DNA from: a phage | Direction: 5' to 3' (one strand) | Assembly (NCBI GenBank): GCA_036930585.1 | Contig: GCA_036930585.1_3066.1 | DNA: 64,000 nt | Part shown: one piece after another, positions 16,232 through 16,543 of the stretch | Layout: every line of letters begins with the position of its first letter | Numbering within the stretch: the first letter of the stretch is position 1 | The notes under the pieces: model-generated | Told to the model about the DNA's origin: nothing | Databases searched by the model: none | Seen by the model: only the letters and a program-made list of their open reading frames with translations | Program-made: the position numbers and the translations under genes

Positions 16232-16342
16232 TATATTCTCTCATTTATTGCAGCAAAAAACGAATTATATAATTCTTCATCATATGTATTTGATAGTAAT
16301 ACTAACACGTTTTGCGATAAATATTAATTTAAAGGAGGACAT

Positions 16343-16543
16343 ATGGCACAAAAATTAATGGCACTTGTTAATGCCATCAAAGGTAATAAAAAACGTATAG
16401 CTTTTACTATTTCTGCTATGATAGGAATTTTACTTTGGAATTTTGTTTTATCGCCAGTTGCTATTGCTCATGGTGTTAGTATTCCAGTAGTTACTCTTGA
16501 TACATTCGTAGATCTAGCATTTGCTTTAGTTGGGTTAATTTAA
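16343..16543 (+). CDS. small hydrophobic protein (predicted 2 TM helices), 66 aa, on plus strand with strong SD
   Basis: AAGGAGG 4 nt upstream of ATG; MAQKLMALVNAIKGNKKRIAFTISAMIGILLWNFVLSPVAIAHGVSIPVVTLDTFVDLAFALVGLI; only plus-strand ORF lying in an otherwise non-coding gap. Confidence 0.45.
   Translation: MAQKLMALVNAIKGNKKRIAFTISAMIGILLWNFVLSPVAIAHGVSIPVVTLDTFVDLAFALVGLI

Follow-up and report, generated by a model that had tools for sequence, protein, structure and literature searches.

The short plus-strand open reading frame (ORF) lying between dam and gene 61 in the window, i.e., the whole 64,000-nucleotide stretch of phage DNA that we analysed, is almost certainly a real protein-coding gene. 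It evolves under purifying selection, keeps its place in the genome from one genus to another and sits behind a conserved late-promoter box. This is not a new gene: it is already catalogued as phrog_2024, and as dam.1 in phage RB3, the name used here. Its product, as modelled, is in all likelihood an inner-membrane protein. The gene is very likely expressed late, and we infer its late transcription in vivo. Overall, we lean modestly towards a genuine late gene whose product would be a small membrane factor in late envelope or lysis events. The coordinates of the features are collected in Table 1.

Table 1. Features of the dam.1 locus and ATAAATA sites of the window
Feature	Position	Strand	Remarks
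gp56 dCTPase	14877-15407	minus	
dam	15428-16231	minus	
Gap in minus-strand coding	16232-16539		between dam and gene 61
T4-type late promoter box GATAAATA	16316-16323	plus	core ATAAATA 16317-16323, 19 nt before ATG
Shine-Dalgarno AAGGAGG	16332-16338	plus	4-nt spacer to dam.1 ATG; 6 nt in T4
dam.1 (phrog_2024) coding sequence	16343-16543	plus	ATG 16343, 66 codons, TAA 16541-16543
Terminator-like hairpin	16355-16380	minus	11-bp stem, then UUUUUGUG at 16354-16347; in dam.1 codons 5-13
Overlap of convergent stop codons	16540-16543	dam.1 plus, gene 61 minus	4 nt
Gene 61 primase	16540-17571	minus	followed by 61.1 and further genes
ATAAATA sites, whole window	1561+, 4726+, 14839-, 16317+, 18296+, 42763-, 56586-, 60902+, 63192-, 63588+	as signed	

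The window comes from a Tequatrovirus, and its segment 15400-17600 shares 99% identity with phages U115, ES19 and ZN18. From position 1 to 40000 all the plausible genes are carried by the minus strand, the plus-strand ORFs of at least 90 aa all overlapping longer minus-strand ORFs. The interval between dam and gene 61, announced in the original prediction as a minus-strand gap of about 300 bp, measures 308 bp and contains no minus-strand ORF of at least 30 aa. The same prediction had placed there a lone plus-strand ORF amid minus-strand genes, with its AAGGAGG motif, its ATG, its 66 codons and its convergent overlap with gene 61, and each of these statements about the sequence was correct. A GGAG, GAGG or GGAGG core is present in all leaders of the T4-like homologues, and the identical overlap of the two stop codons is found in T4, ST0, VR25, L021, L031 and L032. 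dam.1 is the only clockwise gene in a long counter-clockwise early region.

The product of dam.1 matches the phrog_2024 HMM with E = 8.9e-31, its residues 3-66 aligning with positions 2-65 of a 65-position profile. This was the sole significant match in the PHROG search, phrog_36157 being at chance level (E = 0.22). The protein is the same as the one encoded by T-even phages (RB3_032, AR1_033, U115_032; 89-98.5% identity), in which position, orientation, promoter box and Shine-Dalgarno sequence are all as in the window. The labels carried by these relatives are 'hypothetical protein' (hundreds of records), 'putative transmembrane protein' (U115_032) and 'dam.1' (RB3_032). In T4 itself, the ORF is intact at NC_000866 17738-17938; NC_000866 and AF158101 annotate no gene there, and a collection of 15 billion proteins contains no NCBI accession for the exact protein sequence of T4. 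Searches against the Pfam (E up to 10), NCBIfam and PADLOC models gave no match, the fold search returned nothing from the PDB and only members of the same family from BFVD, and the Rfam covariance models run over 15900-16900 gave two chance-level snoRNA matches, none at gathering score. The T6 label 'putative head morphogenesis protein' was rejected as transferred junk because the neighbouring labels are absurd, e.g., the dCTPase gene named as 'ferredoxin'-like. In this T6 record (L004, about 1495-1497), the first codon of the ORF is ATT and not ATG, the annotation begins at Met6, and there is no dam at the locus.

T4 is the reference for the whole phage family, yet both of its records omit an ORF that is clearly under selection. 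If our reading is true, the T4 reference annotation misses a functional late gene encoding a 7-kDa inner-membrane protein. Proteomics databases, CRISPRi libraries and transcript quantification based on this annotation are blind to the ORF. In the published literature that we searched, we found no transcript, ribosome-footprint or mass-spectrometry evidence for dam.1. Nothing on it was found in the searched work on T4 ribosome profiling, on unannotated small proteins and on antisense or late start sites, or in the supplements of a T-even accessory-gene screen. Digestion with trypsin would leave little to detect, LMALVNAIK being practically the only usable peptide beside a hydrophobic fragment of 48 residues; this paucity of peptides, together with the absence of dam.1 from the T4 protein database, would explain the silence of proteomics.

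The original prediction had called for the conservation of the ORF, and not just of the DNA, to be checked in related phages, and the ORF is intact in about 690 T4-like records. Indeed, tblastn detects dam.1 in 698 phage records, with a coverage of at least 80% in 686 of them. In public protein sets, the phrog_2024 family forms 114 clusters at 90% identity (41-73 aa, mostly 63-69 aa) and, at 50% identity, 20 clusters among 1.84 billion representatives (33-99 aa), most intact members having 57-82 aa. The slot between gp56, with or without dam, and the convergent gene 61 is filled by a plus-strand ORF, 60-69 aa long, in no fewer than five genera of Tevenvirinae. We found it in Tequatrovirus, Mosigvirus ST0, Gaprivervirus VR25, Kanagawavirus IME523 (where it is unannotated) and Jiaodavirus KMI13, and three metagenomic T4-like contigs also carry a homologue in the same slot. 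VR25 (L006) has two tandem paralogues, at 2495-2692 and 2701-2901, of which the first resembles the T4 type and the second the type found alone in Kanagawavirus. Two ancient dam.1 subfamilies can therefore coexist.

Selection within the genus was estimated from 15 distinct Tequatrovirus alleles. They gave a dN/dS of 0.17, with 10, 3 and 14 variable sites at the first, second and third codon positions, and a pS/pN of about 5 in the dam.1 frame vs. about 1.8 and 0.4 in the other two frames. This is the opposite of the non-synonymous-dominated variation that the original prediction had named as the pattern speaking against a gene. Between genera, pS is saturated (0.56-0.92) and pN reaches 0.24-0.55; the DNA is only 38-61% identical while the ORF, its length and its motif persist. 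In the protein alignment, W32, N33, P38 and G44 are invariant, P48 and G64 nearly so, and an acidic residue at position 53 is nearly invariant too. Thus conserved, syntenic and under purifying selection, the real gene for a small membrane protein that had been predicted stands.

A T4-type late promoter very probably drives dam.1, as judged from its leader. T4 late promoters consist of an 8-bp TATAAATA box with no -35 element (PMC2988020), and GATAAATA departs from this consensus by a single deviation, G at -13. Among the 50 T4 late promoters listed, 32 match it perfectly, nine carry an A at -13 and most others show one deviation; -13 variants are common in this list, the in vivo strength of the variants being not established (PMC2988020). 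The original prediction had seen a late-promoter-like ATAAATA about 20 nt upstream of the ORF, and we locate this core 19 nt before the ATG, in a genome where the heptamer is rare. In the 64-kb window, 10 ATAAATA were found vs. 41 +/- 6.4 expected, a four-fold depletion. The genome therefore avoids the heptamer, and the dam.1 box is more than a chance occurrence. Moreover, ATAAATA is found 12-22 nt before the ATG in 12/12 T4-like dam.1 loci, although the flanks cannot be aligned, and it is missing in 7/7 non-T4-like contexts of the family.

Half of the ten ATAAATA sites lie 19-30 nt upstream of an ATG-initiated ORF of at least 66 aa, namely soc, dam.1, endonuclease VII (gene 49), a 70-aa phrog_1826 ORF and the lysozyme gene e. 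Hence soc, gene 49, e and the 70-aa ORF provide an internal positive control for the box. Shine-Dalgarno-like sequences were recognized by eye, without scoring, in four of these five leaders, and none is obvious in that of gene 49. The late genes that T4 carries in early regions (soc, gene 49 and e) present the same order, i.e., a late box, 19-30 nt and an ATG; however, they are on the minus strand like their neighbours, whereas dam.1 is oriented against its neighbours and convergent with gene 61. The 70-aa ORF (56347-56559, minus strand) has a perfect TATAAATA box and a Shine-Dalgarno sequence upstream and is, on these signals, another putative small late gene. The remaining five sites, which all read on the plus strand, have no plausible ORF downstream: two are followed by nothing more than a 56-aa ORF lying within 61.2 and a 50-aa ORF of low complexity. 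These five may represent antisense late promoters or have arisen by chance.

The protein can be divided into a basic N-terminus (residues 1-18), a transmembrane helix (19-42), a loop with G44 and P48, and an acidic amphipathic helix (52-63). AlphaFold2, run with a 26-sequence alignment, predicts helices at residues 2-12, 16-42 and 52-63 with a mean pLDDT of 77. Two hydrophobic helices had been predicted. The first was borne out, residues 19-42, which include W32, N33 and P38, forming a strong transmembrane segment (Kyte-Doolittle about 2.0). The second did not hold as a membrane helix: residues 48-66 are hydrophobic in Tequatrovirus (Kyte-Doolittle 1.86) but contain D53 and D57, and in most other branches the C-terminal segment, with a Glu, Lys or Arg, scores 0.6-1.5, below the transmembrane level. 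A second transmembrane helix was consequently rejected as a family feature, the segment being hydrophobic enough in three genera only. Over 38 family members, the net charge averages +2.4 at the N-terminus and -1.05 at the C-terminus, where it is never positive. With this basic N-terminus and acidic tail, the positive-inside rule leads to an N-in/C-out topology, and we predict a single-pass protein with a short acidic periplasmic helix. Two other ideas were discarded, a SAR domain (the Gly/Ala/Ser/Thr fraction of the transmembrane helix averages 0.27 in 141 members) and a lambda-S-like dual start (M1...K4...M6, of which M6 is not conserved outside Tequatrovirus).

The mechanism that we propose is as follows. 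Late in infection, the gp55/gp33-modified RNA polymerase would start at GATAAATA and produce an mRNA with a short leader, of which only a few bases precede the Shine-Dalgarno sequence. The 66-residue product would insert in the inner membrane with its basic N-terminus in the cytoplasm, its single transmembrane helix (19-42) bearing the conserved W-N-x4-P motif and its acidic amphipathic tail of about 24 residues presumably facing the periplasm. It might then act through helix-helix contact with another membrane protein, or through self-association. The transcript probably continues antisense into gene 61, which would be a side effect and not a selected function.

A hint of what such a protein might do in the envelope comes from its distant relatives. 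Distant members of the family outside the T4-like phages match phrog_2024 with E = 1e-9 and 6e-11. Such members are carried by contigs that encode a lambda-J-like tail tip protein and by prophages, including one of Scandinavium lactucae; tblastn with a distant member (P0128) found nothing among cultured phages. A block of genes recurs in these settings, with varying order and orientation. It comprises a gene for a tail tip or tail fibre; a protein of 88-153 aa that combines a transmembrane segment with a coiled coil and has weak spanin-like matches only; endonuclease VII (in the tail-tip contigs and in phage DCP80), replaced by a GIY-YIG-type ORF in L033; the small transmembrane protein of the dam.1 family; a protein of ~180 aa matching phrog_1924 'minor tail protein' (E = 2e-7); and a protein of about 105 aa. 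The ~180-aa minor-tail-like proteins are homologous between contexts (E = 2e-8). A T4-type lysozyme lies at most 3.3 kb away in 5/7 distant contexts (L023/L024, L029, L030, L033 and L037), these contigs being related and syntenic and hence not independent, and the two remaining contexts have none nearby. By their gene content, these contexts place the family among putative late, morphogenesis and lysis genes, and they weakly suggest an envelope or lysis function. The family occurs away from both primase and dam, so its function is independent of these two genes.

DCP80 (L030, PQ671644) carries its family member unannotated, as a 57-aa ORF at 4792-4965 between endonuclease VII and a 183-aa ORF. 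This phage is filed as Gaprivervirus, but the content of the region is siphophage-like and includes a J-like tail tip protein, so that a chimeric or misclassified record is possible.

A lysis or envelope role for the dam.1 product, as an accessory factor working late through its conserved transmembrane motif, is the most plausible that we see; it nevertheless stays speculative, and we hold it to be rather doubtful. More doubtful still is the specific idea that dam.1 controls or times the disruption of the envelope, whether in lysis or in lysis inhibition, or gives rise to a peptide in the periplasm, and that the same module would operate in unrelated temperate siphophages. In classical T4 genetics, lysis is already accounted for by holin T, endolysin E, RI, RIII and the spanins, and the r loci are not known to map to this locus, which weakens a lysis role. 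The gene would gain in interest only with proof of a function in the envelope or in lysis.

The dam.1 product can be compared with holins and antiholins (T and RI of T4, S of lambda, classes II and III). dam.1 likewise encodes a small inner-membrane protein that is predicted to be made late, and T of T4 is single-pass N-in/C-out, like the topology predicted here. At least one transmembrane domain in a small protein, a holin feature, is found in dam.1 by hydropathy and in the AlphaFold2 helix 16-42. On the other hand, the hydrophilic, highly charged C-terminal domain of holins is absent, the C-terminus (...DLAFALVGLI) being hydrophobic, and none of the curated holin models of Pfam (E up to 10) or NCBIfam matches. 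On these two features, dam.1 fails as a member of a holin family. It is not beside e or t in T4-like genomes, e being ~46 kb away in the window. A single family member (UniRef, phage OE5505) is labelled 'Holin', an automated label citing no experiment or other support. The T4 holin is necessary and sufficient.

Among the explanations that compete with an envelope or lysis factor, the one that survives best, though we consider it unlikely, is a late membrane factor shielding the infected cell, i.e., a superinfection-exclusion or counter-defence protein. Imm and Sp of T4 are, like the dam.1 product, small envelope proteins of T-even phages, with sp located in this region, ~2.5 kb away. The dam.1 product, as a small bitopic protein of the membrane, would suit this role; the region is plastic, dam being present or absent and an insert (a homing endonuclease or a 186-aa ORF) being possible; and the family is also found at cargo-rich prophage ends. 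However, dam.1 does not behave as an accessory gene: about 98% of records have retained it, and it spans at least five genera. Both imm and sp are minus-strand genes expressed early, whereas dam.1 lies on the other strand, downstream of a late box, and its product shows no sequence relationship with theirs in the PHROG search. Its late promoter thus agrees badly with the early expression of these two genes, and a consensus scan of the upstream gap gave no plus-strand sigma-70-type match. The lack of any PADLOC match, and of any PHROG besides 2024, also argues against a defence-related function.

It is more improbable that dam.1 encodes the precursor of a secreted peptide, in which residues 1-42 would be a long Sec signal peptide, cut after A40-x-A42, to release a 24-residue acidic amphipathic peptide into the periplasm. 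The N-region is basic and the pattern at -5, -3 and -1 resembles a signal peptidase I site, with P38 at -5, A at -3 in 125/141 members and A, T or S at -1 in 134/141. Nevertheless, Thr is frequent at -1, and the hydrophobic stretch of ~24 residues is anchor-like and long for a signal peptide. Moreover, it contains the invariant W32 and N33, and such constancy would be unusual in a signal peptide destined to be discarded. A membrane anchor therefore fits better than cleavage.

The opposite strand of the locus is also informative. The minus-strand hairpin in the first codons of dam.1 (dG -13.7 kcal/mol, z = -3.2) is the only terminator-like site in 15300-17800, and a terminator is recorded at this very place in phage fPS-2. 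The gene 61 transcription unit probably ends here. This would make a tight packing of the two strands, the first codons of a late gene doubling as the terminator hairpin of the early primase unit. The hairpin is Tequatrovirus-specific and is not conserved in Mosigvirus or Gaprivervirus; being in addition only 26 nt long, it cannot explain the conservation of the ORF. The fPS-2 record also places a middle promoter on the opposite strand, immediately upstream of the ORF. Tequatroviruses that lack dam show, in the reverse complement of their leader, TTATTGCTTTA-N11-TATAAT (fPS-2 L019 564-586, minus strand; the same in L011-L018). We take TTATTGCTTTA/TTGCTTTA and TATAAT to be a MotA box and a -10 element, following the middle-promoter consensus. 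As read from these motifs, the late box of dam.1 is, in these phages, inside the spacer of a putative textbook divergent middle promoter.

No terminator-like site was found on the plus strand in 15300-17800, and the stop codons of dam.1 and gene 61 overlap, which makes antisense read-through into gene 61 likely. An RNA-level function, in which this late antisense transcript would shut off primase and the ORF would be incidental, could be drawn from these two observations and from the fact that several T4 sites are transcribed on both strands (PMC2988020). We judge it highly improbable, and the antisense regulation of primase contained in the original prediction finds no support as a conserved role. 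The selection described above acts at the protein level, the frame, length and motif being kept while synonymous sites are saturated, and the invariant residues are spread along the peptide. Furthermore, a GC-rich hairpin separates the dam.1 homologue from gene 61 in Jiaodavirus KMI13, and the family is also represented in phages that have no primase gene in its vicinity. Finally, that the ORF is spurious, the real content of the region being the gene 61 terminator and the dam/gene 56 promoters, would agree with the hairpin in codons 5-13, the two fPS-2 annotations and the empty gap of the T4 reference records, but it is the least credible reading by far, the hairpin covering 26 of 201 nt in a single genus while the ORF, its length and its motif outlast the divergence of the DNA between genera at the low dN/dS reported above.

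Several peculiarities were noticed around the gene. The 3' end of gene 61 contains a 13-14-bp inverted repeat, AACCCCTGGGCAA (16580-16592) and TTGTTCAGGGGTT (16618-16630), which forms a strong long-range stem on the plus strand (121-nt fold, z = -3.1) with no U-tract after it. Compared with the window, U115 has a 546-bp insertion between dam and dam.1, similarity resuming ~6 nt upstream of the late box. In phages of the U115 type, one more ORF, of 186 aa, stands between dam and the promoter of dam.1 (L002 1333-1893, minus strand). This ORF, which adjoins the GATC methylase, has weak, below-threshold matches to the DpnII and BanI restriction endonucleases (E = 0.004-0.01). In dam itself (minus strand, 15539-15559), the window has an A5 run vs. 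A6 in T4. The last ~35 codons are frameshifted, giving a protein of 267 aa with an unrelated C-terminus vs. 259 aa in T4. In phage Pinarejo, dam is annotated as two pieces with the break at the same place, and the A5 run reflects either genuine variation or an error in sequencing the homopolymer. Lastly, at the position of 61.2, which is a single gene of 208 aa in T4, the window presents two adjacent minus-strand ORFs of 118 aa (17740-18096) and 210 aa (18098-18730) that share the same last 14 residues (SIDDQIFNAFMNRG), as if by partial tandem duplication or recombinant insertion.
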